From Gammaproteobacteria bacterium (GTDB lineage Bacteria; Pseudomonadota; Gammaproteobacteria; J025), in NCBI GenBank assembly GCA_003696645.1, contig RFGN01000738.1, forward strand, positions 1-34,628: 34,628 bases of DNA, read 5' to 3'. The notes under the pieces are model-generated. The model had not been told where the DNA came from, searched no databases, and was given only the letters and a program-made list of their open reading frames with translations. Made by a program: the position numbers and the translations under genes. Below, one piece after another: positions 8,584 through 34,628 of this stretch (positions are counted from its first letter, which is position 1; each line of letters starts with the position of its first letter).

Positions 8584-8640
8584 AACGAGCCGTCCATCTA
8601 TGGAGCCGGGGCTTCTTTACTTTCATCACACGAGGCAATC

Positions 8641-10386: not shown

Positions 10387-10421
10387 GGAAAAGGCCGCCA
10401 GCCGATCAAGGCGGGCGGCCT
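10387..10421 (-). terminator. Intrinsic terminator candidate downstream of the PEP-CTERM/dockerin gene
   Basis: On the minus strand, AGGCCGCC (10421-10414), a 14-nt loop and GGCGGCCU (10399-10392) form a perfect 8-bp GC-rich stem. UUUCC follows the stem. It begins 35 nt after the stop codon at 10456. Confidence 0.5.
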
Positions 10422-10455
10422 CAATAGAAGGATCACTGAGTGTGGGCACGATGGG

Positions 10456-15219: not shown

Positions 15220-15259
15220 GTCATGCCTCCATCCAAACAAGCAGCGGAAGTGAAATCAT

Positions 15260-16404: not shown

Positions 16405-16418
16405 TCATACGTATAACC

Positions 16419-17204: not shown

Positions 17205-17244
17205 CTGCCTGCTGAAACATAATCCAGGAGCAAGTTGTCAAGTA

Positions 17245-20514: not shown

Positions 20515-21561
20515 TCATTTCACCTTGGGTAGATCGCCCGGAATCAACGTCGGGGCGATTCGGATCCGAACTGGTGGTGCATCCGGATGTTCAATGCGGT
20601 AGAGCAGAGCATTAACCGCCCGGGCGCCGATTTCTTCGGCATGGATATCAATAACCGTTGGCTTGATGTCGAGCTGCTCGAGGTATTCCGGCTCGTTATT
20701 ACAGGTTACAAACGCTACCTGTTTCATGACATCCTTGCCTTGACGTCGCCACTCGGCATTGAGTCGCGCGGTTAACGCGTCGGCGGGGGACATAAACGCG
20801 GTCGGTCGGTCTTTGGCTTCCGCAAACTGTCTAGCGAGAGATGACAGGATCCGCTCACTTTCCGGATTACCGAAACGCGCGTGCCCGTGAAAGTTATGCC
20901 CTTCGAGAGTCATCACCCGTCCCCCCCCGGCTTCAAACACCTTGATAAAAGCGTCATGACGCTGCACATAGACCGGGTGTGCGGTATCGACAATAAAAGC
21001 TGCATGACGGTGCCCGTGTTCCAAGAAAAACTCTGCAGCAAGTCGGCCGACCTCTTCAGAATCCGCATTGATGTGATCCACACCCGGTACCGGCATCCCG
21101 AACACCGGGATGGTCGGCAGCCGTTTGAAACTACGAGACATCCGATCCGCATAGGCCTGATAACCCGGAGCAATACAGCCACGCACCGATTCCGTAATCC
21201 CGTAGTCGATCTCACCGGATTCTTTGGAAATCTTGTAGAGAACGGTTCGCATCCCGCGCTTGGTAAGCTCGGATTCGACGCCGTGGACAAAATCGCTGTA
21301 AAGGGGTGTCCGCCAGAAACGTCCCCCCTCACTCTTGAACGTGATGAGCACATCCCCCATCAACCCGTTGGCGTCGGGCTTCATGGATCGACCACGGCTT
21401 TTAGACTTACGTCGTTTGGGCGTATAGTTCAGTTCTTTCATCGCGCGTTCAACCGCTGCGATGGTTTTGCTCGATGCACGCGCCTTGTTGTTGATGATCA
21501 ACGAGACGGTGGCGATCGAAACGCCAGCCCGTTCAGCAACGTCCTTGAGTTTTGCTGCCAT
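20515..21561 (-). CDS. LacI-family transcriptional regulator with an unusually basic hinge
   Basis: 348-aa ORF. It has the N-terminal HTH KLKDVAERAGVSIATVSLIINNK and a C-terminal periplasmic-binding-protein-like sugar-sensor domain. The hinge region reads PKRRKSKSRGRSMKP (nt 21376-21420). Confidence 0.85.
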   Translation of the reverse strand: MAAKLKDVAERAGVSIATVSLIINNKARASSKTIAAVERAMKELNYTPKRRKSKSRGRSMKPDANGLMGDVLITFKSEGGRFWRTPLYSDFVHGVESELTKRGMRTVLYKISKESGEIDYGITESVRGCIAPGYQAYADRMSRSFKRLPTIPVFGMPVPGVDHINADSEEVGRLAAEFFLEHGHRHAAFIVDTAHPVYVQRHDAFIKVFEAGGGRVMTLEGHNFHGHARFGNPESERILSSLARQFAEAKDRPTAFMSPADALTARLNAEWRRQGKDVMKQVAFVTCNNEPEYLEQLDIKPTVIDIHAEEIGARAVNALLYRIEHPDAPPVRIRIAPTLIPGDLPKVK

Positions 21562-21818: not shown

Positions 21819-22694
21819 TTATTCTTTCACGCCGCCAAGCTGGATCCCTTTGATGAAGTAACGCTGAAGGAAAGGATACAGCAACAGCATCGGGAGGATT
21901 GTGATCACCACGGTCGCGGCCTTGATCGTGTCGGGGGTGTAAGCCAGCAGGTCAGGGTTGGGTATGCCCTTCTCGATCATCTCTACACTGTCATCAATCA
22001 CAATACGCTGGAGAAAAGTCTGCATGACCTGTTTTGAGTTGCTGGTGATATAAAGCATGGCATCAAGCCACATGTTCCAATGCAGGACAGCCGTCCACAG
22101 CCCCACGGTGGCAAGCACTGGCTTGGAAAGCGGGATAAATATCTGGAACAACACCCGAAACTCGCTAGCCCCGTCGATCCGAGCCGCCTCGGCCATGCTG
22201 TTCGGGACACGCTCGAAGAAGTTCTTGACCACGATCACATTGAATCCGGTCAACATCACAGGGAGGATGTAAACCAGCCGGTTATCAATCAGCCCGATCC
22301 CTTTGATCAGCAGATAGGTCGGCACAATACCGCCCGAAAACAACATGGTAAAAATCACAAGAAACGTGAGCGCTTTACGGTGCGGCATGTGTGCCCGCGA
22401 TAATGGATACGCACACAGACAGGTCATGATCAGGGTAGCGATCGTCCCGAATACAGTCCGAAGGATGGTGTTGAAATAGCCCGTCAGGATTTCTGGATTC
22501 CCGAACACCATGCGGTAGGCGGTCAGGGTGATATCTCGTGGGTAGAGGTTCAGCCCTCCGCGAGCCGCCTCCGCAGCCGTACTCACGGACAGCACCACCA
22601 TGTAAACAAACGGGTAGATCGCCATCATCCCAATCAAGGCCAGGATCAGGTAATTGACGGCCTGAAATATTTTCTCACCGGGAGACATCCGCAT
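21819..22694 (-). CDS. Carbohydrate ABC transporter permease (LplC/YtcP-like, CUT1 family)
   Basis: 291-aa ORF with six predicted TM segments. It has the EAA-loop context AEAARIDGASEFRVLFQIFIPLSKP. Confidence 0.85.
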   Translation of the reverse strand: MRMSPGEKIFQAVNYLILALIGMMAIYPFVYMVVLSVSTAAEAARGGLNLYPRDITLTAYRMVFGNPEILTGYFNTILRTVFGTIATLIMTCLCAYPLSRAHMPHRKALTFLVIFTMLFSGGIVPTYLLIKGIGLIDNRLVYILPVMLTGFNVIVVKNFFERVPNSMAEAARIDGASEFRVLFQIFIPLSKPVLATVGLWTAVLHWNMWLDAMLYITSNSKQVMQTFLQRIVIDDSVEMIEKGIPNPDLLAYTPDTIKAATVVITILPMLLLYPFLQRYFIKGIQLGGVKE

Positions 22695-22749
22695 GGTTCA
22701 ATCTCTCTTAATCATGGCCGATCGAGGAACGGTATCCAGCCACGCCTAA

Positions 22750-23673
22750 TTACCACACCCCCTGCTCACCCCCGGAAACCCGGCGGGCCACCCAGTTGGC
22801 GGAGATAATCAGTATCAAACCCACGGTGGATTTGAACATCCCCGCCGCGGTCGACAGCCCGAAATCCATGGTCATCAGGCGACGGATGACGTAGGTATCG
22901 ATAATATCACTAACGTCATAGACACTCGGGTTGTAGAGGTTGTAGACCTGATCAAAACCCGCACTGAGAATGTAACCCACCTGAAGAATCGCCAGCACAA
23001 TAATTGTCGGGACTAAGCACGGCAGCGTGACATGCCACATCGAATGCCATTTCCCAGCCCCATCCACAGTGGCAGCTTCGTATAGGGACGGGTTGATGCC
23101 CGCAAGGGCAGCCAGGTAGATCACCGCAGCGTACCCGGCAGCGTGCCAGATCCCAGTCAGGATCAGCATCACGATGAACCATACATCGTGGCTCAAGAAA
23201 AGAATCGGCCCAATCCCGAACAGCCCCAACAGGTAATTGATCGGACCGGTACTAGTCAAGAGTATCTGTAGAATCCCGCCTAATACCACCCAGGAAAAGA
23301 AGTAAGGCAGATACGTCGCGGTCTGAACTGCTCTAGAGAACCACCGCGACCGGACTTCATTCAGCAGCAGCGCCAGAACTATGGGGGCAACAAAACCAAT
23401 CGTCATTCGTAACGAGCTGATGATCAGGGTGTTTCGAAGCGCCCGCGGGAAATCCTCACTGCTGAAAAGGCGCACGAAGTGATCCCATCCGACCCAGGGA
23501 CTTTTGAGAATGCCTAACGACAACCGGTAGTCTTTGAATGCGACAATCAGCCCCATCATGGGGATATAGTTGAAGACCAGGAGTGTCGCCGCACAGGGTA
23601 AAAACATCAGGAGCAGGTCGCGGTTGCCCCGATACTGTTTCAGCCAAGAAGTTCCTTGCCGATGGTATCTCAT
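22750..23673 (-). CDS. Carbohydrate ABC transporter permease (LplB/YteP-like, CUT1 family)
   Basis: 307-aa ORF. It has the N-terminal LLLMFLPCAATLLVFNYIPMMGLIVAFKDY typical of LplB-type permeases and the EAA loop YEAATVDGAGKWHSMWHVTLP. Its start forms an ATGA overlap with the upstream SBP stop. Confidence 0.85.
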   Translation of the reverse strand: MRYHRQGTSWLKQYRGNRDLLLMFLPCAATLLVFNYIPMMGLIVAFKDYRLSLGILKSPWVGWDHFVRLFSSEDFPRALRNTLIISSLRMTIGFVAPIVLALLLNEVRSRWFSRAVQTATYLPYFFSWVVLGGILQILLTSTGPINYLLGLFGIGPILFLSHDVWFIVMLILTGIWHAAGYAAVIYLAALAGINPSLYEAATVDGAGKWHSMWHVTLPCLVPTIIVLAILQVGYILSAGFDQVYNLYNPSVYDVSDIIDTYVIRRLMTMDFGLSTAAGMFKSTVGLILIISANWVARRVSGGEQGVW

Positions 23674-25400
23674 CCGCCCCCCCTCACTTCCTGGTAGAGG
23701 CGGTCCCTGACCTGCAACAGTTCATTGGCTTCCTCCGTCAGGATGCGGCCGCCGCGATCAAGCCATCGGGCGGTGAACTGTTCGAAGGCTTCGATTGGCA
23801 CCTTGCCACAGATAACATCGGTGTAAAACGTCAACTGCATGTTCTGAAGATCTGACAGATAGATGGGGGCGGAGGGGACAATGTCCGGCTTACCCAACGC
23901 GTCGACCATCAGCTTGTCTTTGGGCTGGTACTTGGATCGATGCTGTTTTTCTTCTTCGGAATACAAGAGTTCTTCATAAAGCGGACATTCCGGCCGCCAG
24001 ATCGTCAGCACCTCTCGTTCCCAGACGTTCTGATCGGTATAGGGTTCAAGCAACCGAATACCGCCGGCGTACTCACGGGTCGGGTCGATGAAATCCCAAT
24101 GCTTTCCTCGTTCACCATGACGATGACGGATATAGACTTCGGGACCGTTTGCAACAAAATACTCCATCATTTTTAGCGCGCGGATCACGATTTCGGGTTT
24201 CTCGGCCACACTCGTACCGAAAACAATGATATTGGCGGCACTCCCCCAGTTCCGACAACCACTATCACCGTAAGGCCCGACCGGGAATGAGCCGACGGCA
24301 ATCTCGGCGTCCGGGTTCAGCTGCGCCATCATCGGCTTGAGGGCGTTAGGATTCATCTCCCATTCGAAGTCGAGGTAACGCCCCAGTTGAGAGATGTAGC
24401 CGACCCGCCCGTTGATAAATTTGCTCCGTTCCTGGTTTCGGGTCATGCCATCGGTGACGAATTCCGGATCGATAATGCCTTCTTCGTACCACTCAGCCAA
24501 CATTTCAAGGGCTTCTTTAGCTCTAGGCGTGATTCCGCCCCAAACGATCCGCTTGCGTCCGTCTTCCTCGAGTTCCATCCAGTCGAACGGCAGTACGCCA
24601 TATGCCCCAAAGAATTCGGAGAACGTGATGTGCCAGGCTTGGGCGTTGCCGCTCATGCCGTAGGTATCGTCCCGCCCGTTACCATCCGGATCGTCATACG
24701 TGAACCGCCGCAGTGCCTCATGAAACTCCTCAAGGGTCTGCGGAATTCTTTCGATCCCGACGTTACGAAGCCAATCCACACGCCAGACCCCCGGGTTGGG
24801 ATACCCGCCGTCGATCCAGAGTGTTGGGATCCCCCAGTTTTCGCCGTAGGCATTAGCAAACAGCCACCCATTGGGATCGGTATCACTGATCATCTTGAAA
24901 TAAACGGGTGCGTGTTTTCGTATCAGCCAACGCGGTACGGGCACGATGACGCCGTGATGCGCATCGCTACGGGCGTGGGCCGGATTACCTTCAAAGATCA
25001 CGTGAGGGATATCGCCCCCAGCAAGCATCAGGGGTTTTCTACGTTCATACCCTTGGGCATCCATGAAAATCGGCTTGAGATCGATATTGATGATCTCCTC
25101 AATGATCCGTTCACCAAATGCCCCCTCCACGCCATTGGGAAATCTCGGCAGAGGCATCCACGAAATCACGAGACGCTCGCTCGGATCGTCTTCGACCTGC
25201 GACCAGTCGATGTAGGTTTTTTCAATGATCGCCTGGTTTGCCTGCTCAGGCGTCAACGCCGCACGGTAGACAGCGTAACCACAGGCTAATACACCGCCCC
25301 CCATCACGATGACTATCCAGAATATCAGGCCTGCTGTTTTCATACTCAAGCTTCTGGCGCGATTCGCCGAGCCAACAAGTCGTGTCGAAGCGGCCCGCAT
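23670..25400 (-). CDS. Large extracellular solute-binding lipoprotein (LplA/YtcQ-like) of the ABC importer
   Basis: 576-aa ORF. It has a hydrophobic leader with a lipobox-like GVLAC. The size and the position ahead of LplB/LplC-type permeases fit this family. An alternative ATG at 25343 (MKTAGLIF) is possible. Confidence 0.75.
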   Translation of the reverse strand: MRAASTRLVGSANRARSLSMKTAGLIFWIVIVMGGGVLACGYAVYRAALTPEQANQAIIEKTYIDWSQVEDDPSERLVISWMPLPRFPNGVEGAFGERIIEEIINIDLKPIFMDAQGYERRKPLMLAGGDIPHVIFEGNPAHARSDAHHGVIVPVPRWLIRKHAPVYFKMISDTDPNGWLFANAYGENWGIPTLWIDGGYPNPGVWRVDWLRNVGIERIPQTLEEFHEALRRFTYDDPDGNGRDDTYGMSGNAQAWHITFSEFFGAYGVLPFDWMELEEDGRKRIVWGGITPRAKEALEMLAEWYEEGIIDPEFVTDGMTRNQERSKFINGRVGYISQLGRYLDFEWEMNPNALKPMMAQLNPDAEIAVGSFPVGPYGDSGCRNWGSAANIIVFGTSVAEKPEIVIRALKMMEYFVANGPEVYIRHRHGERGKHWDFIDPTREYAGGIRLLEPYTDQNVWEREVLTIWRPECPLYEELLYSEEEKQHRSKYQPKDKLMVDALGKPDIVPSAPIYLSDLQNMQLTFYTDVICGKVPIEAFEQFTARWLDRGGRILTEEANELLQVRDRLYQEVRGGG

Positions 25401-25488
25401 CCCTTGTCACAGATATCCATACATAGACTGCCAAGATGGGCCATCTTGTACCGGCGGGACGCTTATGATTTCAATAACACCAACGACT

Positions 25489-26250
25489 TCACCGAATCGC
25501 ATCCCACTTTGAATCGTTGAAGTCGTTCAGGTTGTTATCTTTGGCGTTTTCAAAGAGCACGTCGAATGGTGTCTGTTCGACGTGCCCATCACAGAACACT
25601 TGATTTACTTTGCTCTTATGGGCTGCCATACGATTCGGATTTCGGTAAGCGGTTGCGGCAGCGACACGCCCTACGTTGATCCAACCGTTCACCCCACCAT
25701 CGATGTGATAATCAACAATCAGGATCGTATCGGAAGGCATGGTAACCTCAGGAACGGTCAATGACTTGAACTTCCAAGGCCCGGTCGCGTAGCCGTATTG
25801 CGAGCCGCAGATTCCCGGCGCAGCGGGTGTCTCTTTGCCGTAGTTGTCTGCTAAAGAATTCATCGCATAACTGAGAATGCTTTGCCGGTCATTTCGAATG
25901 ATAACCCGTTCCACCTCGTCTGAAGGGCAGGCGTATAACTCCTGATTTCCGCCGTAGACCGCGCCGTTCTGCATCTGAATCTCTCCCCTGCCGTCATAGG
26001 CGGGCAGCCGATTATTGAAGGTGTCATACTTACCATACGGGAGCATCTGCTCGGAATCTTCGGCATAAGTGAGACTCGCGATCGCGATCTGTCGCATATT
26101 GGATTTACATACCGACGACTTAGCCGCTTCCCGAGCTGCCCCCAAGGCGGGCAACAGAATCCCCACCAACAGGGCGATAATGCTGATGACAACAAGCAAT
26201 TCAATAAGAGTAAACCCCCATCGAGCCGAACGTTTTACATTTTTTAACAT
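25489..26250 (-). CDS. Prepilin-type N-terminal cleavage/methylation protein with H-X9-DG motif (DUF1559-like pseudopilin-like protein)
   Basis: 253-aa ORF. It has the class III signal [28 protein letters not shown]. The C-terminal [12 protein letters not shown] (nt 25585-25620) is an exact H-X9-DG motif. Confidence 0.85.
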
Positions 26251-26583
26251 CCTAAACCTCGCTTTTTACCTTCCAGGCCCAGGTCCGCTCCAGCCCCGTA
26301 AACACAATAATTATCGCGCTAATTGGGCTTTGGCGCGGTTTATATCATATCGAACCAAGCAAAAAGATCAAGTCAAATAAAGTTAAACATGACAGTTTTA
26401 CATGCCCTGTGATCCCGAGGCCTTATACCTCAACGGACGCCACGGATCATACCACTGTGATTGCAGACACATACTTATGCTATCCCCCCACCTCACGCAC
26501 CATCGACACAAGAATTAAATGCTGGGGATGTGTGTTTTTATGGTAGCTCGTTGCGTCCGTGAAGTTACCTATTCCCCGTCCCG

Positions 26584-27750
26584 CTATACGTAGAAGTGCT
26601 TGTGCGAATGTATTTCACGAATCCCCGGATGCTTTTCCATTTCCTCTTCAATCAGATCCACCCCCAGCCCGGAACGATTGGACAGGTGTAAATAGCCTGA
26701 CCGGACATCAAGCGGATGAGAAATTACGGTATCACGCCAAGGCACATCATTAACCATAAACTCGCAGCGGAAAAAATTGGGGATAGATGCACACACATGG
26801 GCGCTGGCCAGGGTGCTAAGTGGGCCGTTGGGGTTATGCGGAGCGACCAATACGTTATACGCCTCAGCCATGGTTGCGATCCGTTTCATTTCACTGGGGC
26901 CTCCGCATCGCGTGATATCGGGCATGATGACATCACATATGTGTTTCTCAAGAACGGGTCTGAACCCGTGGCGGGTGTAGTGGCGTTCGCCGACACAGAT
27001 CGGAACATTCGCGGGCAGCCGTTTCCGCAGCGCCGCCAAGGTGTCTGCCGACTCAGGTCCGGCCGGCTCTTCGTACCACGTCACCCCCAATGGAGCCAGC
27101 CGATTGGCCATCTTGACTGCCACCTCCCCGTTGAGCATCGCATGCGTTTCTATCATGATGGCGATGCCCGGACCGACCGAATCCCGAACCGCCTGTGTGA
27201 TATCGAAAGCCAGATCCTGCTGATCGGGAGAGAGGGCGAGGTTGTCGTGCAGATCTTCGCCATAGAAGTAGTTCACGTGAGCAAAAGGATCAAACTTCAA
27301 GCCTGTGAACCCCTTTTCAACCACCGCCTTGGCCTGCTCCGCGTAGTCTTCGGGCGAGTGCCGACCGCCTGTAAACCAGTAATTCGCATACAACTGAATA
27401 CGGTCGCGGTATGCCCCCCCCAATAAATTGTAGACCGGCGTCCCCAATGCCTTGCCTTTCAAGTCAAGTAATGCCATGTCGAGACCAGAGATGGCACATA
27501 AACTCGCCCCATAAGGACCAATCCAATTCAGATCGCGATACAGCTTGGTCCAGATGTAGTCCGTGCGCATCGGGTCCATTCCGATTACCCGCTCGCCGAC
27601 ATGCCTGGTTGCCGCTTCGATAATGGGAGATCCCGGCCAGTTGGTGGATTCACCGACCCCTGTGAGTCCCTCATCTGTATAGACTTTTAGAAGGGTCCAA
27701 TTGTATTTCACCCCTTCCACCAACCAGACTTTCACATCGGTAATCTTCAT
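26584..27750 (-). CDS. Enolase-superfamily acid-sugar dehydratase (D-galactonate/D-mannonate dehydratase-like)
   Basis: 388-aa ORF. The N-terminus MKITDVKVWLV...TDEGLTGVGEST and the block AISGLDMALLDLKGKALGTPVYNLLGG are typical of this group. The metal-ligand contexts LKFDPF, WYEEP and VGERH are present. Confidence 0.8.
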   Translation of the reverse strand: MKITDVKVWLVEGVKYNWTLLKVYTDEGLTGVGESTNWPGSPIIEAATRHVGERVIGMDPMRTDYIWTKLYRDLNWIGPYGASLCAISGLDMALLDLKGKALGTPVYNLLGGAYRDRIQLYANYWFTGGRHSPEDYAEQAKAVVEKGFTGLKFDPFAHVNYFYGEDLHDNLALSPDQQDLAFDITQAVRDSVGPGIAIMIETHAMLNGEVAVKMANRLAPLGVTWYEEPAGPESADTLAALRKRLPANVPICVGERHYTRHGFRPVLEKHICDVIMPDITRCGGPSEMKRIATMAEAYNVLVAPHNPNGPLSTLASAHVCASIPNFFRCEFMVNDVPWRDTVISHPLDVRSGYLHLSNRSGLGVDLIEEEMEKHPGIREIHSHKHFYV

Positions 27751-27801
27751 GTCGCCTCGTTTATAATTGAATCTGGACTAAATACTATCCTGAATACACT
27801 T

Positions 27802-28956
27802 TTATCGATTCGGGACCAACGGAGACCTGAGGGCCTCGACGGTTTCATCCAATGATGCCGCCCCGGACCAGAAACGATCCAGAGTGTCGGCATTGCGGAG
27901 TTCAATATCATGGAACCCGCTATACCTTGGGCGGATAAAGCTGTGCTCCATCAAAGATGACATGTCTGAATAAAACCCGTTAACGGTATCGTTGATTTTC
28001 ACATCATCCCAGACAGACCGATCGGCGGGTTGGCCTGAGTTTGACGGGAATATGCGGCGCTGAACGGATTCAGACATGACATACATCGCGTATGCTGACG
28101 CGGCTTCTACCTCCCGGCACGTCTGGGTTACTGCCAGTCCGACACCGCCCAATATTGGCGTTGGTGGCTTGTTCCATAAGGTGGGACATCCGGCCAGTCT
28201 GAGCTTGCGATTGCCGGCAGTATTGAAGTAATTGACATATCCGAAAATCTGGGGACAGTATGAGACGTCGTCATGAGTCGTCATGTACTCATAGATATCC
28301 CACGGCCCCCAAGTCGTGGAACCCGGAGGGACGAAAGTCAACAATTCAGACAGCATAACCAAGATCTTCCTGGCCGCTTCGGGGTCACAGGTCGGGTTTT
28401 CGGGATCGGTATAAGCGGGAGTGCCGAGGGAATTCATTAAGGCCAGAAAAAGACAATTGCCCAGCACCGAGTTAATGCTTAACACCAACGGGTAACTTCT
28501 AGGCGGATCGAACCGCTGTTTGGCCCATTCTCCAAGCACACTCCAATCTCGTGGCAAGTCATGAATCGCCAACAAGTCTTCACGTATCAAGCCTGCGTGA
28601 CATGCGGCATCAACCGGAAGCGCCCATAGCCGGTCATGCCATACATAACTGTCATAGCTAGGAGGAACGACACGTCGCTTAAGATCATCAAGATAAGACT
28701 GATCTACCAAAGAGTCCCACGCGCGGAGATAGCTATGGCTTACCAGTGTTCCAACCCAAGGATGATCGAGCATGACCATGTCATAAGGCTTGCACTTACC
28801 CGTCACAGCATCGAGCAGACGATGTTCAAACTCAATCCACGGCAAGGCTTCCCACACGACTTCCACATCTGGGTGTAACTCTCGCCACAAGCGTGCCGCG
28901 GCCATTAACGGATCCACCCCCCTTGGGTTCTGCCACGTCAAGCCTATTAAACGCAT
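27802..28956 (-). CDS. Leaderless (cytoplasmic) solute-binding-protein-fold protein, function unknown
   Basis: 384-aa ORF. It begins MRLIGLTWQNPRGVDPL with no signal peptide or lipobox. The layout (WQNP...W.E.HP.V.V.W...PW..F..RL, YDMVMLDHPWVG, LWALPVDAACH) resembles family-1 ABC substrate-binding proteins. The family call is moderate. Confidence 0.55.
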   Translation of the reverse strand: MRLIGLTWQNPRGVDPLMAAARLWRELHPDVEVVWEALPWIEFEHRLLDAVTGKCKPYDMVMLDHPWVGTLVSHSYLRAWDSLVDQSYLDDLKRRVVPPSYDSYVWHDRLWALPVDAACHAGLIREDLLAIHDLPRDWSVLGEWAKQRFDPPRSYPLVLSINSVLGNCLFLALMNSLGTPAYTDPENPTCDPEAARKILVMLSELLTFVPPGSTTWGPWDIYEYMTTHDDVSYCPQIFGYVNYFNTAGNRKLRLAGCPTLWNKPPTPILGGVGLAVTQTCREVEAASAYAMYVMSESVQRRIFPSNSGQPADRSVWDDVKINDTVNGFYSDMSSLMEHSFIRPRYSGFHDIELRNADTLDRFWSGAASLDETVEALRSPLVPNR

Positions 28957-28966
28957 CGGCTGCCCC

Positions 28967-29278
28967 TTATTTCAACGGGCTAAGTTCGGTGGGCGAAAGA
29001 AAGACGGCTTCCTGAGTGACGTAGTGTTGTCGACACTCCTCCAGGTATTCAGCAAAACCCGGATGCTTGAGCAGTGCTTGGCGCGCTTCCTGTCGGTGGT
29101 TCAGATCCTTGAATGCCCAAAGGGTATAAATCTGGTTACAAGTTCCTGACTCACCGACCCACTGGCCGACCATGCCAAAATAGGGTTCCAACATCGCCCG
29201 GCCTCGTTCCCGCCACATCTGTAAAACCTTATTAACGCTTCCGGGCTTGCAGGTATAGATCCGCAGTTCGTAGATCAC
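28967..29278 (-). CDS. NIPSNAP-family protein (dimeric alpha/beta-barrel fold)
   Basis: 103-aa ORF with a GTG start that forms a GTGA overlap with the upstream SDR stop. The start IYELRIYTCKPG and the internal block IYTLWAFKDLNHRQEAR are typical NIPSNAP features. Confidence 0.7.
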   Translation of the reverse strand: MIYELRIYTCKPGSVNKVLQMWRERGRAMLEPYFGMVGQWVGESGTCNQIYTLWAFKDLNHRQEARQALLKHPGFAEYLEECRQHYVTQEAVFLSPTELSPLK

Positions 29279-30060
29279 GCTTCACCTCCAAGCTTCGGGA
29301 TACTAGCCCCCAGGTCCACTTTGATGACCTGCCCATTCACATCTTCAGCCAACGGCGAACACAGCCAGACAAAGGCATCCCCGATCGCTTCGGGACGTAC
29401 CATCCGCTTAAGCGGGATGACTCGATTGACCATGGACCGGTATTCGGGATCGTTTTCATAAACGATCAGGCAAGAACCGGCGGCCACATGGCCGGGCGCT
29501 ACTAGGTTGTAACGGATACCGGCCTCCGCATGCTCGAGCGCCAGCGTTCTGGCAAACATCTCAAGCGCGGCTTTGGCTGGGTTGTAGGCAGAGAGATCAA
29601 CCCAAGGCACCGAGCCACACAACGATGAGGTATAGATCATGTGACCGCGTATCCCGGCATCCAACCAATAGCGAGTCACGGCACGAGTCAGATAGACCTG
29701 GCCATGGAAATTGAATCTGAAGATCCGTTCGTATTCCTCCGGACTGGTTTCATGAAACGGATGCAGAGGACAGCCGCCGGCATGACCGAGACATATTTCG
29801 ATCTGTTTATAACGCCTGCTCAGCTCTGAAACAGCTGTGTTAACCGATTCAGGATCCATCACATCCATCACGGTATAGGGGGTTCTGTCTTCCGGTACAC
29901 CCCAGGAATCAATACGTTCACGAGCCTGATCCGGGGGAACAATATCCGTACACAACACAACAGCACCAGCCTCCACAAGCCGTTTGGTCACGAACTCGGC
30001 AATCGCACCGAGCGCCCCGGTCAACAAGATGGTCTTACCTGTCAAGTCGATCGTGATCAT
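29275..30060 (-). CDS. Short-chain dehydrogenase/reductase
   Basis: 261-aa ORF. It has the cofactor motif LLTGALGAIAEFV and the catalytic SAYNPAKAAL (YxxxK) motif. An ATGA overlap links it to the upstream gene. Confidence 0.8.
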   Translation of the reverse strand: MITIDLTGKTILLTGALGAIAEFVTKRLVEAGAVVLCTDIVPPDQARERIDSWGVPEDRTPYTVMDVMDPESVNTAVSELSRRYKQIEICLGHAGGCPLHPFHETSPEEYERIFRFNFHGQVYLTRAVTRYWLDAGIRGHMIYTSSLCGSVPWVDLSAYNPAKAALEMFARTLALEHAEAGIRYNLVAPGHVAAGSCLIVYENDPEYRSMVNRVIPLKRMVRPEAIGDAFVWLCSPLAEDVNGQVIKVDLGASIPKLGGEA

Positions 30061-31163
30061 GTTTCCTTGCTCCGGTATGTGTTAACAGCGTTCCAGTCCC
30101 ACTCAATGCCGATCCCGCTGAAATCATGATGAAAATCAGGTTTGCTCGGTTTCGGTGCCGTCCGCCAGAGAAGATGGGCCGAGTCAAGCCCCAGGCTTTC
30201 CGGCATACGTTCGACCCAATTGACATTCGGCGCCGCGTAAGCCAACTGGGTGTGAAGTTGGTCGAATATGTGACAGGCCACCGGCAACCCATGTCGATCG
30301 GCCAACTCAGCAATCTTCAGAAACGCACGCACACCACCGCACACGGTGGCATCCAAACGCACGACATTGACCCGACCGGGCTCCATCAGACGAGAAAAAG
30401 CTCTCAAGCCGCTCTGCTCATCTCCGACCGCGATCGGCACGCCGGCCTCGCGCCGCAACAACTCAATCCCCTCGTAATCATCAAATGCAACCGGGTCTTC
30501 GATCCATCCGAGATTCAAGTCTTTCCAGCATCGGATCTCACGGGCAAAGCGATGTGGGTCCTGCACCTGCCAGAACAGGTCGATCATGACCGGAAAATCC
30601 GGCCCCAACACCTCTCGACACACCTTAAGGCGGGCCGTATCACGAGCCGGATCACCGCTGCTGGCGATCTTGACACCATCAGCCCCGGCTTCTCGCATGG
30701 CCTGTACCTGAGTACCCAGCGAATCATGCGTTTCGTCAGGAGTGGGATAGCCCCCTACCAACAGCAGATGGATCGGACGGCCAATCCCATTCAGATATTC
30801 ACCCAGCGGTTTTTCCGCCCGCTTGGCAAGCAGGTCATACAAGGCGCAATCACACAGACTGAGTGCTCGCCAGAATATCCCGTGGGTTCCCAAGCACACA
30901 TTTGCCTGAACTGTTTGGTTATAAACTTCATCGTGGCGATCAAGATCAGCGCCTTGCCAGGCGGGTGAAATCGTCTGGCGGACAGTTGCACCGATTGGGG
31001 CATTCCGTGTTAGCCCATACGAAACACCTTCAGTACCCTGTTCATCACGAACACGGACTATGCAATATTCACGATCTTTTATCTGCATCCGGCCAAGGGT
31101 AAAAGGCTTCGGAAGTGGAACCCGTACGGTATACGTTTCGATATCGACAATCCGTCCGCTCAT
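30057..31163 (-). CDS. Enolase-superfamily (mandelate racemase/muconate lactonizing enzyme family) protein, probable acid-sugar dehydratase
   Basis: 368-aa ORF. It has an N-terminal capping domain (IVDIETYTVRVPL) and the barrel metal-ligand contexts VMIDLF, GWIEDP and AVGDEQ. An ATGA overlap links it to the upstream gene. Confidence 0.75.
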   Translation of the reverse strand: MSGRIVDIETYTVRVPLPKPFTLGRMQIKDREYCIVRVRDEQGTEGVSYGLTRNAPIGATVRQTISPAWQGADLDRHDEVYNQTVQANVCLGTHGIFWRALSLCDCALYDLLAKRAEKPLGEYLNGIGRPIHLLLVGGYPTPDETHDSLGTQVQAMREAGADGVKIASSGDPARDTARLKVCREVLGPDFPVMIDLFWQVQDPHRFAREIRCWKDLNLGWIEDPVAFDDYEGIELLRREAGVPIAVGDEQSGLRAFSRLMEPGRVNVVRLDATVCGGVRAFLKIAELADRHGLPVACHIFDQLHTQLAYAAPNVNWVERMPESLGLDSAHLLWRTAPKPSKPDFHHDFSGIGIEWDWNAVNTYRSKET

Positions 31164-31954
31164 GATGGGGCATCCTCCGCGGCCCCGTATATGGAATATC
31201 CGCCGTCAATAAACAACACCTGCCCGGTCACGTATTGCGACAAATCTGAGCTGAGGAATACGGATGCTTTACCAATATCTCCAGGTTCACCGATCCGCCG
31301 CATGGGGATACGGGCCAGGATTCGATTTTCATCAATAGCGCCTTTCGCTCTATATTCTTCGTATAAAGGTGTCCGGTGGTAACCCGGGCAAATCACATTG
31401 ACACGGATCCGGTGCCGAGCCCAGTCCACTGCCAAGCTGCGGGTCAAACCGACTACCGCGGTTTTACTGGTCCCGTAAATCCCCCGTCGTGGCATCCCGA
31501 AGGCGGCGTTCAAACTGCCTATGTTGATGATGGATCCCGGACTACCGGAATCGATCCAGCGCCTTGCCACCAGCTGACTCATCATCAAAACCGCGGTCAG
31601 ATTGACACTCATCACGCGGTCCCACTGTTCCTGCGTGATCTGCTCTGCGGGCGCATGAAGTTGTATGCCCGCATTGTTGACCAGTGTGTCAAGACGCCCT
31701 AGTCGCCGGAATGCTTCTGACACAGCCTGTTCACGTTGTTCCGGGCTCGTCACGTCACCGGCCAAACCGATGTGTCCATCGCCCGGCAGATTGCTGGCCG
31801 ACTCCTCTACTAAGACACGGTTGCGATCCATCAATGCCACGACTGCGCCGTGACGTGCCATACAAGTGGCGATGGCCAGCCCCAGCCCTTGGGCGCCGCC
31901 AGTCACCAGCACCCGAACACCCTGCAATAATGGCTTTGCGCCCTCGCCCGTCAT
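31160..31954 (-). CDS. Short-chain dehydrogenase/reductase (classical)
   Basis: The ORF track extends to 31993. I prefer the ATG at 31954 (MTGEGAKPLLQG), which forms an ATGA overlap with the MBL stop. It has the motifs VLVTGGAQGLGLAIA, NNAG and YGTSKTAV (YxxxK). Confidence 0.85.
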   Translation of the reverse strand: MTGEGAKPLLQGVRVLVTGGAQGLGLAIATCMARHGAVVALMDRNRVLVEESASNLPGDGHIGLAGDVTSPEQREQAVSEAFRRLGRLDTLVNNAGIQLHAPAEQITQEQWDRVMSVNLTAVLMMSQLVARRWIDSGSPGSIINIGSLNAAFGMPRRGIYGTSKTAVVGLTRSLAVDWARHRIRVNVICPGYHRTPLYEEYRAKGAIDENRILARIPMRRIGEPGDIGKASVFLSSDLSQYVTGQVLFIDGGYSIYGAAEDAPS

Positions 31955-32904
31955 GTCCTCACCACCAGTCCATTGTCGGATATTTCCACACACCCCTGAT
32001 TACTGAGATAGTCCAAGTAGCCGTCCAAAGCGTATGAATAGTGGGCGTAATCGGCTTCCCCCCAAGTTCCCCACGACCGGTTCAACACGAGCAACAGTTC
32101 TGAAAAAGACGCCTGACCTTGGGCTCTGATGAAATCATGAAGCAAGCCAAGATCGCGATAGACCGTCTCCCTGCTTTGCCTCAGGAACTCGGTAAACATG
32201 TCACCGCTCATCGGCTCCCAATGGCAGGGCATGGCAGTGCTCACCGATAGTTCCACCAATCGTTGCAATGTCTTGAGGTAATCCGCGATGTATTGATGCG
32301 TAGGCGGCATTGAAGGCTTGCCGGTCGCATCCGGCGGGCCATATCCCAACACCGCGTCTCCCAAGAGAAGTTCACCTGTTTCCGCACACCACAGACACAC
32401 ATGCCCGGGGCTGTGGCCCGGGGTATGCAGGACACACCAAGCCTGATCCGCCCCGTCGATTTGATCTCCCTCGTTCAATTCACAGTCGACGACACAATGA
32501 TCCCCACACATCTGCCTCAACGCGGACATGACCTCGGGTGGATAGCAATGACCGAAACGATTCTTGGCATGGCCATAACGTTCTTGAACAAGACGATCAT
32601 GATCTTCCACCCATGCGCGGTCAGCCTGATGACAGGCCACCACCATCTCGGGGTATTGCTGCTTCAGGGACGCGACATCGCCTAGATGATCGGCGTCGGC
32701 GTGCGAGATGATGGCCTTGCGGATGTCTCCCGACCACACCCCCTGCCTTAATCGGCTGGTCAATGAACCGGGCACGCCCGCATCAAACAGCACCCACCCA
32801 TCCTCGTGCCTGAGCGCGTAAAACGACAACAACCGTTCGCCCAAGGGCTCAAACAGACGCCATAGGCCCGGTCGTATTTCTTCTGCCCCCTTCGTCAAGT
32901 TCAT
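31951..32904 (-). CDS. Metallo-beta-lactamase-fold hydrolase with a variant HxDxDH motif (candidate lactonase)
   Basis: 317-aa ORF. Motif 2 reads SHADADHLGD (nt 32686-32703) instead of HxHxDH. The other ligand contexts (HTPGHSPGH, LLLGD, PCHWEP) are present. An ATGA overlap links it to the regulator stop. Confidence 0.75.
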   Translation of the reverse strand: MNLTKGAEEIRPGLWRLFEPLGERLLSFYALRHEDGWVLFDAGVPGSLTSRLRQGVWSGDIRKAIISHADADHLGDVASLKQQYPEMVVACHQADRAWVEDHDRLVQERYGHAKNRFGHCYPPEVMSALRQMCGDHCVVDCELNEGDQIDGADQAWCVLHTPGHSPGHVCLWCAETGELLLGDAVLGYGPPDATGKPSMPPTHQYIADYLKTLQRLVELSVSTAMPCHWEPMSGDMFTEFLRQSRETVYRDLGLLHDFIRAQGQASFSELLLVLNRSWGTWGEADYAHYSYALDGYLDYLSNQGCVEISDNGLVVRT

Positions 32905-33632
32905 GGCTTAGCACCCGTTGTATCAAGGCCCAGTGTCGCACGAAGGTCTTCTGTTGCGGATTCAATCAGACGGGTCATGGCACGATAGGCGGTGGTTGCC
33001 GATCCACGAACGATGGCATTGGCCACCGACTTATGCAAGGGCAATGATCGTTCGATCGGTTTAGGCACACGAGATGACACCGCATGGCTGATACGTAATG
33101 CCCCGAGCAGGATCTCACCCATCTGGCCAATCAATTCGTTGCCACAGGCACGGTAGATCGAACGGTGAAATTCGATATCCGCATTGAGGTATGCCTGAAG
33201 ATCGGTTCCCGCTTCAATCATGCCTTGCATCGCATCAGAGACAGCTTGAATCCCCCCCGGATCCCTCCGTTTGGCGGCCAACATCGCTGCAGAAGGTTCA
33301 ATCATCCGACGGGCCTCGACCACCTGCCGAAGCATGTCCTTCCTGCGCTCTGGGGCCTTGGCATGCCAAGCGATGACGTCGTCATCAAGCAGATTCCACC
33401 GGTCCCGTTCGGTCACCCGGGTACCGACGCGTTTTTTGGGCTCCACCAACCCCTTGGCTGCCAGCGTACGCATCGCCTCCCGTAGGACGCTACGACTGAC
33501 CCCCAATGTGGCGATCAGATCCTGTTCGTGCGGCAGCAAATCACCACTCGGATAGACACCGCGGATAATCCGCAACCCCACTTCGTGCTTGACACGTGCG
33601 TGCTGCGATTGCTGTCCTGTCTTGTTGACCAT
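32901..33632 (-). CDS. GntR/FadR-family transcriptional regulator (first gene of the operon)
   Basis: 243-aa ORF. It has the winged-HTH LPHEQDLIATLGVSRSVLREAMRTLAAKGLVEPKKRVGTRV and an all-helical FCD-type C-terminal domain. Confidence 0.85.
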   Translation of the reverse strand: MVNKTGQQSQHARVKHEVGLRIIRGVYPSGDLLPHEQDLIATLGVSRSVLREAMRTLAAKGLVEPKKRVGTRVTERDRWNLLDDDVIAWHAKAPERRKDMLRQVVEARRMIEPSAAMLAAKRRDPGGIQAVSDAMQGMIEAGTDLQAYLNADIEFHRSIYRACGNELIGQMGEILLGALRISHAVSSRVPKPIERSLPLHKSVANAIVRGSATTAYRAMTRLIESATEDLRATLGLDTTGAKP

Positions 33633-33641
33633 GGCTCCAGA

Positions 33642-33659
33642 ATAAAGTATGATTTATTT
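33642..33659. promoter_or_regulatory. Inverted repeat AATAAA-GTATGA-TTTATT in the divergent GntR/RraA spacer
   Basis: Read directly. It has perfect 6-bp arms and a 6-nt spacer and begins 10 bp upstream of the regulator ATG at 33632. It could be an operator or simply AT-rich promoter DNA. Confidence 0.3.
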
Positions 33660-33757
33660 GGACGCAAGGGGCCAGGAGCTTTTTCTGCTTCGCCTGTACC
33701 GAGTAGCACCTGTGCGACCGGTTATGTGACCGATACGCAGCAACCAGCATTCACTCT

Positions 33758-34483
33758 ATGGCAACACTCGATCACCATTCCTCATCCACCAACAAACCAC
33801 CCACAGAAGATGGCGAACGCTTTTCCTGGGCCAAAACCCACCTGTTTTCAGCGGTCATTGGCGACGTCATGGACACGATGGGGCTGCGCGATCAGTTTCT
33901 GCCACCGCAAATCCAGCCGTTGTCACCCGAAATGGTGGTAATTGGTCGAGCGATGCCTGTGTTGGAAGCGGATGATGAAGGCGGAGAAGGTCCTGGCAGA
34001 ATATGTGAAGCCTTGAACCAACCGTTCGGCTTGATGCTGCGGGCGTTGGATAACCTACGACCCAATGAAGTCTACATCTGTACGGGCTCTTCTCCCACTT
34101 ATGCTTTATGGGGCGAGCTGATGAGTACAGCGGCCAGAAACCGCGGAGCTGTCGGTGCGGTCGTCAACGGATACTCTCGTGATACTCGTGGTATCCTGAA
34201 GATTGGATTTCCGACTTTTTCCTACGGCCGATATGCTCAGGACCAACGTGTTCGCGGCAAGGTGATTGACTACCGGTGCCGGATACGAATCGGCCAGGTC
34301 ACGATTCAACCGGGTGATATGATCTTCGGCGATCTGGACGGCGTCTGTGTAGTACCACAACAGGCAGAAAACGATGTACTTGCTGCGGCATATGAAAAAG
34401 CGGTTGGCGAGAGACGCGTGTTTGAAGCCATTAAAAACGGCATGGGCGCCCAAGAAGCTTGGGATCGATTTGGGATCATGTAA
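33758..34483 (+). CDS. RraA / 4-hydroxy-4-methyl-2-oxoglutarate aldolase-family protein
   Basis: 241-aa ORF. It has the family blocks SAVIGDVMDTMGL and WGELMSTAARNRGAVGAVVNGYSRDTRGI (G..M...A...G..G.V..G..RD), plus DLDGVCVVP near the C-terminus. Confidence 0.8.
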   Translation: MATLDHHSSSTNKPPTEDGERFSWAKTHLFSAVIGDVMDTMGLRDQFLPPQIQPLSPEMVVIGRAMPVLEADDEGGEGPGRICEALNQPFGLMLRALDNLRPNEVYICTGSSPTYALWGELMSTAARNRGAVGAVVNGYSRDTRGILKIGFPTFSYGRYAQDQRVRGKVIDYRCRIRIGQVTIQPGDMIFGDLDGVCVVPQQAENDVLAAAYEKAVGERRVFEAIKNGMGAQEAWDRFGIM

Positions 34484-34525
34484 CCATGCCCGGCTAAATA
34501 CAGGACGGACACGCGTAACCAAGTA

Positions 34526-34628
34526 TTACCCCTTGACCGCCCCACTGGTCAGCCCGGCTATAAACTCCCTCTGCAACGCGAAAAACAGCACCGCGACAGG
34601 AAACACCGACAGCAGCGTCCCCGCCATC
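34526..34628 (-). CDS. Partial CDS: C-terminus of a carbohydrate ABC transporter permease (continues beyond the window)
   Basis: The reverse strand translates to ...MAGTLLSVFPVAVLFFALQREFIAGLTSGAVKG*, a typical MalG/CUT1 permease C-terminal tail. The stop codon is at 34526-34528. Confidence 0.6.
   Translation of the reverse strand, partial: MAGTLLSVFPVAVLFFALQREFIAGLTSGAVKG

Follow-up and report, generated by a model that had tools for sequence, protein, structure and literature searches.

A conserved six-gene cassette containing a NIPSNAP protein and a leaderless MalE-fold protein, proposed to act in a non-phosphorylative sugar pathway

In this study, we analysed a stretch of 34,628 nucleotides from a gammaproteobacterium (contig RFGN01000738.1; the whole stretch is called the window), which carries eight consecutive genes on the minus strand, running from 33632 to 26584 according to the open reading frame (ORF) table and a reading of the reverse strand. 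In order, they encode a GntR/FCD regulator, a metallo-beta-lactamase-fold (MBL) hydrolase, a short-chain dehydrogenase/reductase (SDR-A), an enolase-superfamily protein (enolase-A), a second SDR (SDR-B), a NIPSNAP protein, a leaderless protein with the MalE-type solute-binding protein (SBP) fold, and a second enolase-superfamily protein (enolase-B) (Table 1). Four junctions are ATGA overlaps (32904/32901, 31954/31951, 31163/31160, and 30060/30057), and the junction between SDR-B and NIPSNAP is a GTGA overlap (29278/29275). The true start of SDR-A is the ATG at 31954. A spacer of 10 nt (ggggcagccg) separates the NIPSNAP gene from the ATG of the SBP-fold gene at 28956, and 51 nt precede the ATG of the 388-aa enolase at 27750. 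An earlier interpretation made from the letters of this DNA (the sequence-only reading) had given the same gene order, overlaps, and gaps, all of which were confirmed on the reverse strand, and Pfam bore out all of its domain calls.

The regulation of these genes was examined from the flanking DNA. The 125-bp region between the regulator gene and a divergent RraA-like gene contained no inverted repeat of 8 or more bases and a single promoter-like match, which was at chance frequency. Scans of positions 25300-34628 for consensus promoters and terminators gave results at or below the shuffle expectation, and no Rfam family was found across the whole window. Since the promoter and terminator scans were uninformative, the case for a single transcript is based on the overlaps and on the gene order kept elsewhere. 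We consider it somewhat more probable than its opposite, a judgement that applies jointly to the whole explanation developed below, that the eight genes form one translationally coupled catabolic operon inside a glycan-utilisation island.

We next compared the operon with related loci, which were found from the contigs of homologs of the SBP-fold protein and from scans of species genomes and metagenomes. The search with the SBP-fold protein returned 68 homologs, all of approximately 365-405 aa, and the metagenome scan returned 15 loci, mostly short. Six of the eight genes, namely those for the MBL hydrolase, SDR-A, enolase-A, another SDR, NIPSNAP, and the leaderless MalE-fold protein, formed a cassette that was present in 16 loci besides the window. 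These belong to Planctomycetota, Verrucomicrobiota, and polysaccharide utilization loci (PULs) of the Bacteroidota type, and the carriers are marine and soil bacteria of several phyla. Wocania (Sabulilitoribacter) arenilitoris HMF6543 and Cerasicoccus frondis are cultured carriers. Identity to the window proteins was 58-75% for NIPSNAP, 44-60% for the binding-protein homolog, 46-60% for enolase-A, 46-68% for SDR-A, and 38-56% for the MBL hydrolase. The gene order varied by phylum. Even so, in 15 of the 16 loci, the genes for NIPSNAP and the binding-protein homolog lay next to each other or had a single SDR gene between them. Up to three SDRs were found per cassette.

The two remaining genes of the operon were not part of this conserved set. 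Orthologs of the GntR/FCD regulator (52-57% identity) head the cassette in the close relatives L002 and L102, and the other loci have an AraC or LacI regulator or an ECF/FecR pair. A clear ortholog of enolase-B was found only in L103 (67% identity), in the same operon as the cassette, and unrelated enolase paralogs (28-29%) lie upstream of the cassette in L087, L089, and L095. Thus, the eight-gene unit of the sequence-only reading held as an operon but not as the conserved unit. As judged from gene conservation, the functional unit is the six-gene cassette and not all eight genes. The divergent RraA-like gene, which had been flagged in the same reading, turned out to be a true recurrent companion: it was present in 8 of the 17 cassette loci, several of the remaining contigs being too short to judge. 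Its orthologs (46-60% identity) are located within the cassette or next to it in L006, L084, L086, L102, L103, L104, and L089, and the gene is often co-directional inside the operon with a third SDR gene behind it. No SDR gene follows the RraA-like gene of the window, unlike in L086, L102, and L104.

The cassette was then compared with curated resources. We found neither a curated family model nor a close solved structure nor an open-access paper that covers it, the full-text search of the open literature having incomplete coverage, and no characterised ortholog of the operon came to light in the family models, structures, and papers searched, a finding on which the novelty claimed by the sequence-only reading depended. 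In the NCBIfam release of June 2026, enolase-A, enolase-B, the MBL hydrolase, and the RraA-like protein did not reach any cut-off, and NIPSNAP and the binding-protein homolog had no matches at all. The database names of the relatives of the binding-protein homolog and of enolase-A were generic. These results indicate that the type of pathway is known and that the parts list is new.

NIPSNAP and the leaderless MalE-fold protein were listed in the sequence-only reading among the unusual parts, and the comparison showed that they are not decoration. Judged by sequence conservation, they are the most tightly conserved pair of the cassette, and they belong to no known sugar pathway. The NIPSNAP protein matched its Pfam family over residues 3-101 of 103 (76.2 bits against a cut-off of 22.3) and is the best-conserved protein of the cassette across phyla; its relatives in the PDB are structural-genomics entries without an assigned function. 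NIPSNAP, an obligate partner of the SBP-fold protein, was found in cassette loci only and not once next to the distant relatives of that protein. The SBP-fold protein starts with MRLIGLTWQNPRG. In its AlphaFold model (pLDDT 95.2), core strand 1 is formed by residues 2-8. Foldseek aligned it with the ligand-bound MalE-type proteins MalE3, SmoF, and GacH (TM 0.84, approximately 17% identity), and hhalign gave a profile probability of 97.6% against E. coli MalE. The two-lobe fold and the ligand cleft are thus common to this protein and to the MalE/CUT1 binding proteins, such as MalE3 of T. maritima and SmoF of A. tumefaciens. The invariant residues R12/G13, D64-H65-P66-W67, D116, F238/Y240, and E352 lie on or beside positions that we take to be the maltose contacts of MalE.

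MalE/CUT1 proteins are exported, whereas no signal peptide or lipobox was present among the listed members of the SBP-fold family. We therefore considered whether the gene might simply encode a binding protein that serves an ABC importer close by from outside the cytoplasm, with its start codon or export signal missed, in which case the operon would contain nothing unusual. The fold is that of a MalE-type binding protein, and an importer with a 576-aa binding protein and two permeases is encoded just downstream of the operon (21819-25400). However, that importer has its own binding protein. The start of the SBP-fold ORF is the earliest start codon to follow an in-frame stop, and there is no in-frame start above the ATG at 28956, which itself lies 10 nt past the NIPSNAP stop; the proposal of the sequence-only reading that the protein is leaderless was borne out by this, by the position of core strand 1, and by the homologs. 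In a whole-library profile search, the family comprised at least 766 clusters at E<=1e-30. Among the best 150 of the 766 representatives, the match started at protein residue 1-19 in 148, and the missing leader is therefore a trait of the family. In contrast to MalE/CUT1 genes, the SBP-fold gene lies inside operons of cytoplasmic enzymes, often without an ABC permease. The loci L003, L006, L084, and L086 contain no ABC permease, and the Bacteroidota copies of the gene either overlap the NIPSNAP gene or directly adjoin it. An overlooked transport receptor is thus highly improbable.

The family of the leaderless homolog extends beyond the cassette. Relatives were found in at least 563 stretches of species-representative genomes. 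SDR genes lay near 69 of 87 family sequences, and enolase-superfamily genes were within 10 kb of 46 of the 87. Over 71 loci, the immediate neighbours varied (NIPSNAP, CoA-transferase, enoyl-CoA hydratase, IclR, SBP_bac_5), so that no single partner reaction can be deduced. A distant subfamily (approximately 30% identity) is encoded behind a family III CoA-transferase gene, often with an enoyl-CoA hydratase gene (Table 1), and in Acidobacteriota, a 600-aa family-I-like CoA-transferase and an SDR are encoded upstream of a member of the distant subfamily. The family is thus not limited to enolase-type operons. In a Mesorhizobium locus (L028), the neighbour of the gene is a complete Dpp-type ABC importer equipped with an SBP_bac_5 protein of its own. 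Across these very different operon types, the cleft residues Asp-His-Pro-Trp, Asp116, Tyr240/243, Gln309, and Arg342 were invariant, and such retention of polar cleft residues is more typical of enzymes than of transport receptors. A role as a regulatory sensor was considered and rejected, because the regulators change (GntR, AraC, LacI, IclR, ECF/FecR) while the protein stays. In Evansella halocellulosilytica, a member of the Firmicutes (L021, 5977-16793), the genes encode an IclR regulator, a family III CoA-transferase split into two ORFs, an MBL protein 27% identical to that of the window, an SDR, the leaderless homolog, an aldose-epimerase-like protein, a Gfo/Idh/MocA oxidoreductase also split into two ORFs, a xylose-isomerase-like TIM barrel, an FAH protein, and an aldehyde dehydrogenase. 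The trio of MBL, SDR, and binding-protein homolog therefore also occurs without an enolase.

On the basis of fold and gene company, the leaderless homolog is predicted to be a cytoplasmic partner of carboxylate-activating enzymes and not a transport receptor. A further step would be to regard NIPSNAP and the leaderless protein as a two-protein catalytic unit for a step that is absent from the known oxidative sugar pathways, with the cassette degrading a rare algal sugar that has no known pathway; a transporter-type binding protein would then have been taken into cytoplasmic use, either as an enzyme or as an obligate subunit that presents the substrate. We put this proposal forward tentatively, as a possibility on the weaker side of even.

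The genes around the cassette point to sugar use. Sugar importers were found at the cassette in several forms, namely SSF symporters (orthologous in L004, L084, and L093), XylE-like MFS sugar porters (L006 and L086; 407 bits for one of them), and ABC importers (L103 and the window). A mutarotase of the GalM subfamily was present in L003, L006, L084, and L086 (244 bits against a cut-off of 240). SusC/SusD pairs, sulfatases, and GH29, GH95-like, GH2, and GH3 glycosidases were further neighbours: GH95-like and GH2 in the window and L102, GH29 in L002 and L086, and GH3 in L006 and L086. GH20/GH172 genes were found in L085 and L104, a GH78-like gene in L104, and genes for beta-helix proteins in the window, L003, and L086. 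The GH95-like gene that the sequence-only reading had placed in the same island as the operon was present, and fucosidase genes lay near the cassette in several loci. An attempt to read the substrate from the neighbouring glycosidases failed, since the glycosidase types differ by locus.

One family of neighbours had no Pfam match. These proteins of 670-750 aa, here called the Unk740 family, are encoded beside the cassette in four Bacteroidota-type loci and also occur in Zobellia, and the window contained no homolog. The AlphaFold model (pLDDT 92) gave as best folds the Zobellia GH129 3,6-anhydro-D-galactosidase, GH36 alpha-galactosidases, GH101, and GH31, at a TM of approximately 0.5 and 10% identity. 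Judged from this model, the alpha-glycosidases of clan GH-D most likely have a new relative in the Unk740 family, which is probably an undescribed glycoside hydrolase family. In the PUL of L084, the Unk740 protein is the sole glycosidase candidate, which suggests that it releases the sugar of the cassette.

Enolase-A consists of an N-terminal capping domain and a C-terminal barrel, as in the mandelate-racemase subgroup (Pfam MR_MLE_N and MR_MLE_C). Its best match in the PDB was L-talarate/galactarate dehydratase (2.8e-33; Salmonella STM3697, 2pp0/2pp3), which was also its best NCBIfam model (138 bits against a cut-off of 500). It shares with this enzyme the barrel, the three carboxylate ligands, and the His-Asp dyad. 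The metal ligands D (VMID), E (WIEDP), and D/E (VGDEQ), corresponding to D226, E252, and E278 of the dehydratase, were kept in the 8 orthologs aligned. RLDATVCGG and A-C-H align with D301 and H328, and the His was found in 8/8 orthologs. Proteins of the mandelate-racemase subgroup have three carboxylate metal ligands where strands 3, 4, and 5 end, a His-Asp dyad where strands 7 and 6 end, and, at the end of strand 2, a KxK motif whose second Lys serves as a general base. In enolase-A, this motif reads K-I-A-S, with Ala at the position of Lys197, which is the L-talarate base of the dehydratase, and at the second Lys of the cycloisomerase discussed below; in the alignment, enolase-A has the same residue here as the K197A mutant structure. 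K-[IVL]-A-S was invariant in 8/8 orthologs aligned. Because the second KxK lysine is absent, the mechanism of enolase-A should differ from that of its nearest solved relatives. By analogy with L-rhamnonate dehydratase, a single-base, His-driven elimination is expected rather than racemisation. The family comprises approximately 100 clusters at >=40% identity, with names that are all generic.

Enolase-A also matched 3,6-anhydro-L-galactonate cycloisomerase (ACI) of Vibrio sp. EJY3 (5xd7; 1.2e-32) from end to end (residues 4-363), with equal length (368 aa) and a marine algal-glycan context in common, as well as the Zobellia galactanivorans entry 5olc (4e-25). This likeness would fit a route for an anhydro- or otherwise modified galactose (3,6-anhydro-D-galactose, 3,6-anhydro-L-galactose, or a sulfated or methylated sugar), in which enolase-A is an ether-ring-opening cycloisomerase like the Vibrio and Zobellia enzymes, the SDRs take 2-keto-3-deoxy-galactonate onward via a diketo intermediate, and the MBL hydrolase, NIPSNAP, and the binding-protein homolog pre-process the sugar. 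2-Keto-3-deoxy-L-galactonate is processed by dehydrogenase/reductase steps, which the presence of up to three SDRs per cassette would suit; sulfatases are frequent neighbours, and the best fold of the Unk740 family was the GH129 3,6-anhydro-D-galactosidase. However, identity to the cycloisomerases is approximately 30%, no better than to L-talarate/galactarate dehydratase, and the cycloisomerase has KxK intact where enolase-A has K-x-A. Known routes start with an aldehyde dehydrogenase and end with 2-keto-3-deoxy-galactonate kinase and aldolase, none of which is in the cassette. GalM beside the cassette argues for a normal anomeric centre, and the GH129 match of the Unk740 family is hardly above its GH36 and GH31 matches. 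Such a route thus appears unlikely.

Enolase-B reached 243 bits with the NCBIfam galactonate dehydratase model (cut-off 311), and its translation contains the complete catalytic set of GalD-type residues (E-T-H, YEEP, GER, PD, and PHN), a set made up of acid-x-His at strand 3, two Glu metal ligands, and an Asp/His dyad. Its best PDB matches, 2poz and 2qq6, are 'putative dehydratases' of unknown function. We propose from these residues that enolase-B is an accessory GalD-like dehydratase. The two enolases also bear on whether the substrate is a carbohydrate at all. Many members of the enolase superfamily are non-sugar enzymes, and the distant relatives of the binding-protein homolog occur by Dpp peptide/opine-type ABC transporters, IclR regulators, CoA-transferases, and enoyl-CoA hydratases. 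It is therefore conceivable that a hydroxy-amino-acid, a betaine, or another small carboxylate is degraded, that the enolases are racemases or epimerases, and that the glycan neighbours are incidental. Acid-sugar dehydratases were nevertheless the best-scoring matches for both enolases, the second base that a racemase or epimerase needs is missing in enolase-A, and sugar importers, a mutarotase, glycosidases, or SusC/SusD were found at every cassette locus long enough to judge. We regard a non-carbohydrate substrate as very unlikely.

Of the two SDRs, both of the classical type, SDR-A is the conserved one: its gene always follows the MBL gene, and orthologs (46-68% identity) were present wherever the cassette contigs cover that position. 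With 232 bits, SDR-A passed the NCBIfam cut-off for the 'glucose 1-dehydrogenase' subfamily (215 bits), and its best PDB relatives were gluconate 5-dehydrogenase and KduD-type enzymes (1e-42 to 1e-47). SDR-B had no PDB relative better than 1e-22. The relatives of both were generic and gave no substrate. Orthologs of SDR-B (59-70% identity) were found in L002, L004, L102, and L093; in other lineages, a different SDR takes this position, or an SDR gene immediately precedes that of the binding-protein homolog. The lineages do not share an orthologous second SDR: the window type and the Bacteroidota type are 24% identical. An Asp after strand 2 of an SDR is associated with the use of NAD(H). SDR-A has the motifs TGxxxGxG and YxxxK, and the Asp after strand 2 was found in both SDRs, which by motif indicates that both use NAD(H).

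The MBL hydrolase carries a variant metal motif. Its first metal motif is H-A-D-A-D-H, in which the second His of HxHxDH is replaced by Asp, in 8/8 orthologs, and the motifs HADADH, LPGHSxGH, GD, PSMPxTH, and HW were common to all 8 aligned, so that the later HSPGH, GD, and HW motifs of the superfamily are present. The best PDB relatives (1e-8 to 1e-9) were glyoxalase II, a paraoxonase, and TTHA1429. A cytoplasmic lactonase is proposed from fold and gene position. The GntR/FCD protein has both domains of its class (Pfam GntR 8e-17, residues 12-73; FCD 5e-26, residues 104-224), and its best NCBIfam likeness was to NanR/LldR-type regulators, all far below cut-off. From its distribution among the loci, it is predicted to be a lineage-specific local regulator.

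The RraA-like protein carries an Arg-Asp motif of the aldolase type. The motif G-Y-S/H-R-D-T was found in 7 orthologs, at a position where E. coli RraA has R-Q. The Arg-Asp pair is presumably the one that binds metal and enolate in the aldolases and is absent from the E. coli RNase E regulator. The protein matched the solved Pseudomonas putida HMG/CHA aldolase (3noj) at 1.5e-10, and its NCBIfam score was 66 bits against a cut-off of 179. HMG/CHA aldolase and FlDet are, like the window protein, Pfam RraA-like proteins of approximately 230-240 aa with Arg-Asp in G-x-x-R-D, and both act on 4-hydroxy-2-keto acids, which are the products of acid-sugar dehydratases. FlDet, the RraA-family protein of Flavobacterium sp. 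UMI-01, acts on a 2-keto-3-deoxy sugar acid (PMC8563752).

The FlDet precedent suggests a route in which the SDRs produce an aldarate, from a uronate or from a hexose oxidised at both ends, enolase-A dehydrates it, and the RraA-like protein yields alpha-ketoglutarate semialdehyde. FlDet, a 2-keto-3-deoxy-glucarate dehydratase/decarboxylase, carries out the dehydration and decarboxylation of a 2-keto-3-deoxy-aldarate (PMC8563752), and the nearest structure and best family model of enolase-A are those of an aldarate enzyme, although the score of 138 bits is far from the cut-off of 500 and the base lysine of L-talarate/galactarate dehydratase is absent. Aldarolactones could be handled by the MBL hydrolase or NIPSNAP, and lyase-like beta-helix proteins are encoded in several loci. 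However, none of the cassettes examined contained or adjoined a gene for alpha-ketoglutarate semialdehyde dehydrogenase. Their importers belong to the neutral-sugar type (SSF, XylE-like) rather than the acid-sugar type, and the gene context places enolase-A with neutral-sugar uptake and not, as for L-talarate/galactarate dehydratase, with aldarate use. An aldarate route is therefore judged quite unlikely.

In the explanation that fits these data best, which we favour with slightly better than even confidence, the gene set is predicted to degrade a galacto-configured aldose in the cytoplasm by an oxidative, non-phosphorylative route. The six-gene core would be a unit that moves from phylum to phylum. 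A neutral aldose cut from sulfated, fucose-containing algal glycans would be imported by an SSF, MFS, or ABC transporter. SDR-A may oxidise the sugar at C1 with NAD+ to the lactone, which the MBL hydrolase would open, and enolase-A would dehydrate the aldonate to a 2-keto-3-deoxy acid by its His-Asp dyad alone. This acid may be split by the RraA-like protein, as a metal-dependent aldolase, into pyruvate and an aldehyde, or the second SDR may oxidise it first. NIPSNAP and the leaderless homolog would act as a pair on the ring or keto form of the sugar or acid, taking the place that known routes give to a mutarotase or to a ring-opening or diketo-acid hydrolase, and of all the steps this one is the least secure. 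As an extra dehydratase of the GalD type, enolase-B would probably extend the set of acids that can be handled. A galacto configuration is probable for the sugar, which could be L-fucose, L-galactose, D-galactose, or a modified relative. This configuration is suggested by the substrates of the nearest enolase relatives, since the nearest solved relatives of enolase-A all act on galacto-configured acids, as well as by GalM, the fucosidase- and galactosidase-type glycosidases, and the GH-D-like fold, each of which is a weak indication.

The same logic is possible in the non-phosphorylative L-fucose and L-rhamnose routes (Xanthomonas campestris FucD; Azotobacter/Sphingomonas LRA1-6), which are clustered and cytoplasmic and use a 1-dehydrogenase, a lactone hydrolase, an enolase-superfamily dehydratase, and, as the last step, an aldolase or an SDR 4-dehydrogenase with a hydrolase, with pyruvate as an end product. 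The parts differ. The lactonase of these routes is an amidohydrolase, whereas an MBL-fold protein occupies the slot in the cassette, and where they have an FAH hydrolase or a DapA-type aldolase, an RraA-like protein stands instead. Amidohydrolase lactonase, FAH hydrolase, and DapA-type aldolase domains were found neither in the operon and the window flanks nor in the Pfam-annotated cassette loci. The dehydratase is not of the FucD/RhamD family (1e-13 and 1e-20 to those structures): FucD (1yey, 2hxt, 2hne) matched only residues 152-298 of enolase-A at approximately 1e-13, and no FucD model was among the NCBIfam matches. The mutarotase, where present, is of the GalM type and not the FucU or RhaM of these routes, and the cassette adds NIPSNAP and the leaderless MalE-fold protein. 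The sugar-acid route of the sequence-only reading was thus upheld insofar as the neighbours mark a sugar-catabolic unit and the enzyme logic can be mapped, and its link to L-fucose weakened, given the partial FucD match, the absence of the known lactonase and FAH protein, and importers and mutarotase of the xylose/galactose kind.

Several observations weigh against the galacto-configured aldose route. At 25-35% identity, sequence does not reveal the specificity of SDRs and enolases. Close relatives of the MBL protein that have been characterised are lacking, and instead of a lactonase it could be, for example, of the sulfatase type or a C-C hydrolase. The three diagnostic enzymes of the known fucose and rhamnose routes are all absent. 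The glycosidases that differ between loci do not name a single sugar. GalM is already present in some cassettes, which makes a mutarotase role less plausible for NIPSNAP. CoA-transferase and enoyl-CoA-hydratase operons also contain relatives of the binding-protein homolog, and the chemistry of its family may therefore not be specific to sugar acids.

The rest of the window contains further genes of the island (Table 1). A DUF1559/N-methyl prepilin-like gene and then the importer genes follow the operon, and the window contains no ATPase gene for the importer. At the other end, the RraA-like gene faces a convergent partial gene for the C-terminal part of a sugar-type ABC permease (...FALQREFIAGLTSGAVKG, then stop). 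The window also encodes a pair of right-handed beta-helix paralogs with 25% identity to each other. One of them (2596-4827) has a 37% homolog adjoining the cassette in L003, the other (12808-15240) gave a weak match to a GH141 insertion domain, and both had weaker matches in a Zobellia locus. Two PEP-CTERM-anchored proteins are encoded between the GH2/Big_9-ricin genes and a beta-helix gene. Together with the DUF1559/N-methyl prepilin-like gene, the PEP-CTERM genes point to a planctomycete-like host; the sequence is known from a single metagenome assembly. A second catabolic module on the plus strand encodes SIS_2, SDR, FAD-dependent oxidoreductase (PF12831), ROK kinase, and PTE-family proteins, and a LacI gene lies beside it. 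The best match of the PTE-family protein was phospho-furanose lactonase (222 bits, below cut-off). Orthologs of the SIS, SDR, FAD-oxidoreductase, and ROK proteins occur in Zobellia galactanivorans with 47-63% identity and the order kept. Their locus also encodes GH29, sulfatases, and beta-helix proteins, as well as GalM, a member of the Unk740 family, and a sugar porter 72% identical to the one adjoining the cassette in Wocania. Z. galactanivorans does not carry the cassette itself. The cassette and the SIS-SDR-FAD-ROK module may be alternative or successive routes for one sugar.

Table 1. Positions of the operon, its companions and neighbours in the window, and the related loci (MAG, metagenome-assembled genome)
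Feature	Position or locus	Strand	Description
GntR/FCD regulator	33632-32901	-	First gene of operon; FadR-type; Pfam GntR + FCD; ATGA overlap to MBL
MBL hydrolase	32904-31951	-	Pfam Lactamase_B 3.5e-23; ATGA overlap to SDR-A; proposed lactonase
SDR-A	31954-31160	-	Pfam adh_short_C2 4.7e-64; ATGA overlap to enolase-A; proposed aldose 1-dehydrogenase
Enolase-A, 368 aa	31163-30057	-	Pfam MR_MLE_N + MR_MLE_C (9e-38); ATGA overlap to SDR-B; proposed acid-sugar dehydratase/cycloisomerase
SDR-B	30060-29275	-	Pfam adh_short_C2 6e-44; GTGA overlap; proposed 2-keto-3-deoxy acid dehydrogenase
NIPSNAP protein, 103 aa	29278-28967	-	GTG start; Pfam NIPSNAP 2.5e-21; then 10-nt gap
Leaderless MalE-fold (CUT1-type) SBP-fold protein, 384 aa	28956-27802	-	Weak Pfam SBP_bac_1 + SBP_bac_8 (~2e-6); then 51-nt gap
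Enolase-B, 388 aa	27750-26584	-	Pfam MR_MLE_N + MR_MLE_C (9.5e-60); galactonate-dehydratase-like; operon end
Regulator/RraA-like divergent intergenic region, 125 bp	33633-33757		Presumed control region
RraA-like gene, divergent	33758-34483	+	Pfam RraA-like 2.9e-32; aldolase/decarboxylase type
ABC permease, C-terminal end	34527-34628	-	Sugar type
DUF1559/N-methyl prepilin-like gene	25489-26250	-	333-nt gap downstream of operon
ABC importer, 576-aa binding protein	23670-25400	-	SBP_bac_1-type
ABC importer, permeases	22750-23673, 21819-22694	-	
LacI gene	20515-21561	-	Beside second catabolic module
Second catabolic module	15601-20491	+	
Beta-helix protein	12808-15240	-	
PEP-CTERM-anchored proteins	10456-11460, 11638-12432	-	
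Beta-helix protein	2596-4827	-	
GH95-like gene	287-2530	-	PF22124 3.7e-31; 24 kb from operon
Cassette locus	L004		Pirellulales MAG
Cassette loci	L002, L102		Planctomycete-like contigs
Cassette loci	L005/L085		Verrucomicrobiia MAG
Cassette loci	L003, L084, L086		Bacteroidota-type with SusC/SusD
Cassette locus	L006		Cultured flavobacterium Wocania (Sabulilitoribacter) arenilitoris
CoA-transferase-type loci	L018, L020, L023-L025, L030, L035, L038, L043, L047, L054, L055, L083; ~7000-11200 in each		
Unk740-family genes	L006 6545-8767; L003 18412-20664; L084 6057-8069; L086 12651-14792; L105 10001-12268		

Algal glycans that are sulfated and rich in fucose make up a large pool of marine carbon with a slow turnover. 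The final oxidation of their sugars is only partly known in Planctomycetota, Verrucomicrobiota, and Bacteroidota, and in loci of this kind the cassette sits directly behind the importers. Solving the cassette would name a substrate for an orphan family of the enolase superfamily and would test whether MBL-fold and RraA-like proteins replace the usual lactonase and aldolase or hydrolase. It would also give a first function to the widespread cytoplasmic binding-protein homologs, which bears on the re-use of receptors as enzymes or partners. If the pair of NIPSNAP and the leaderless protein does form a catalytic unit, the leaderless family would represent an unrecognised cytoplasmic class that stands alongside enolase-superfamily, SDR, and CoA-transferase enzymes in carboxylate catabolism.

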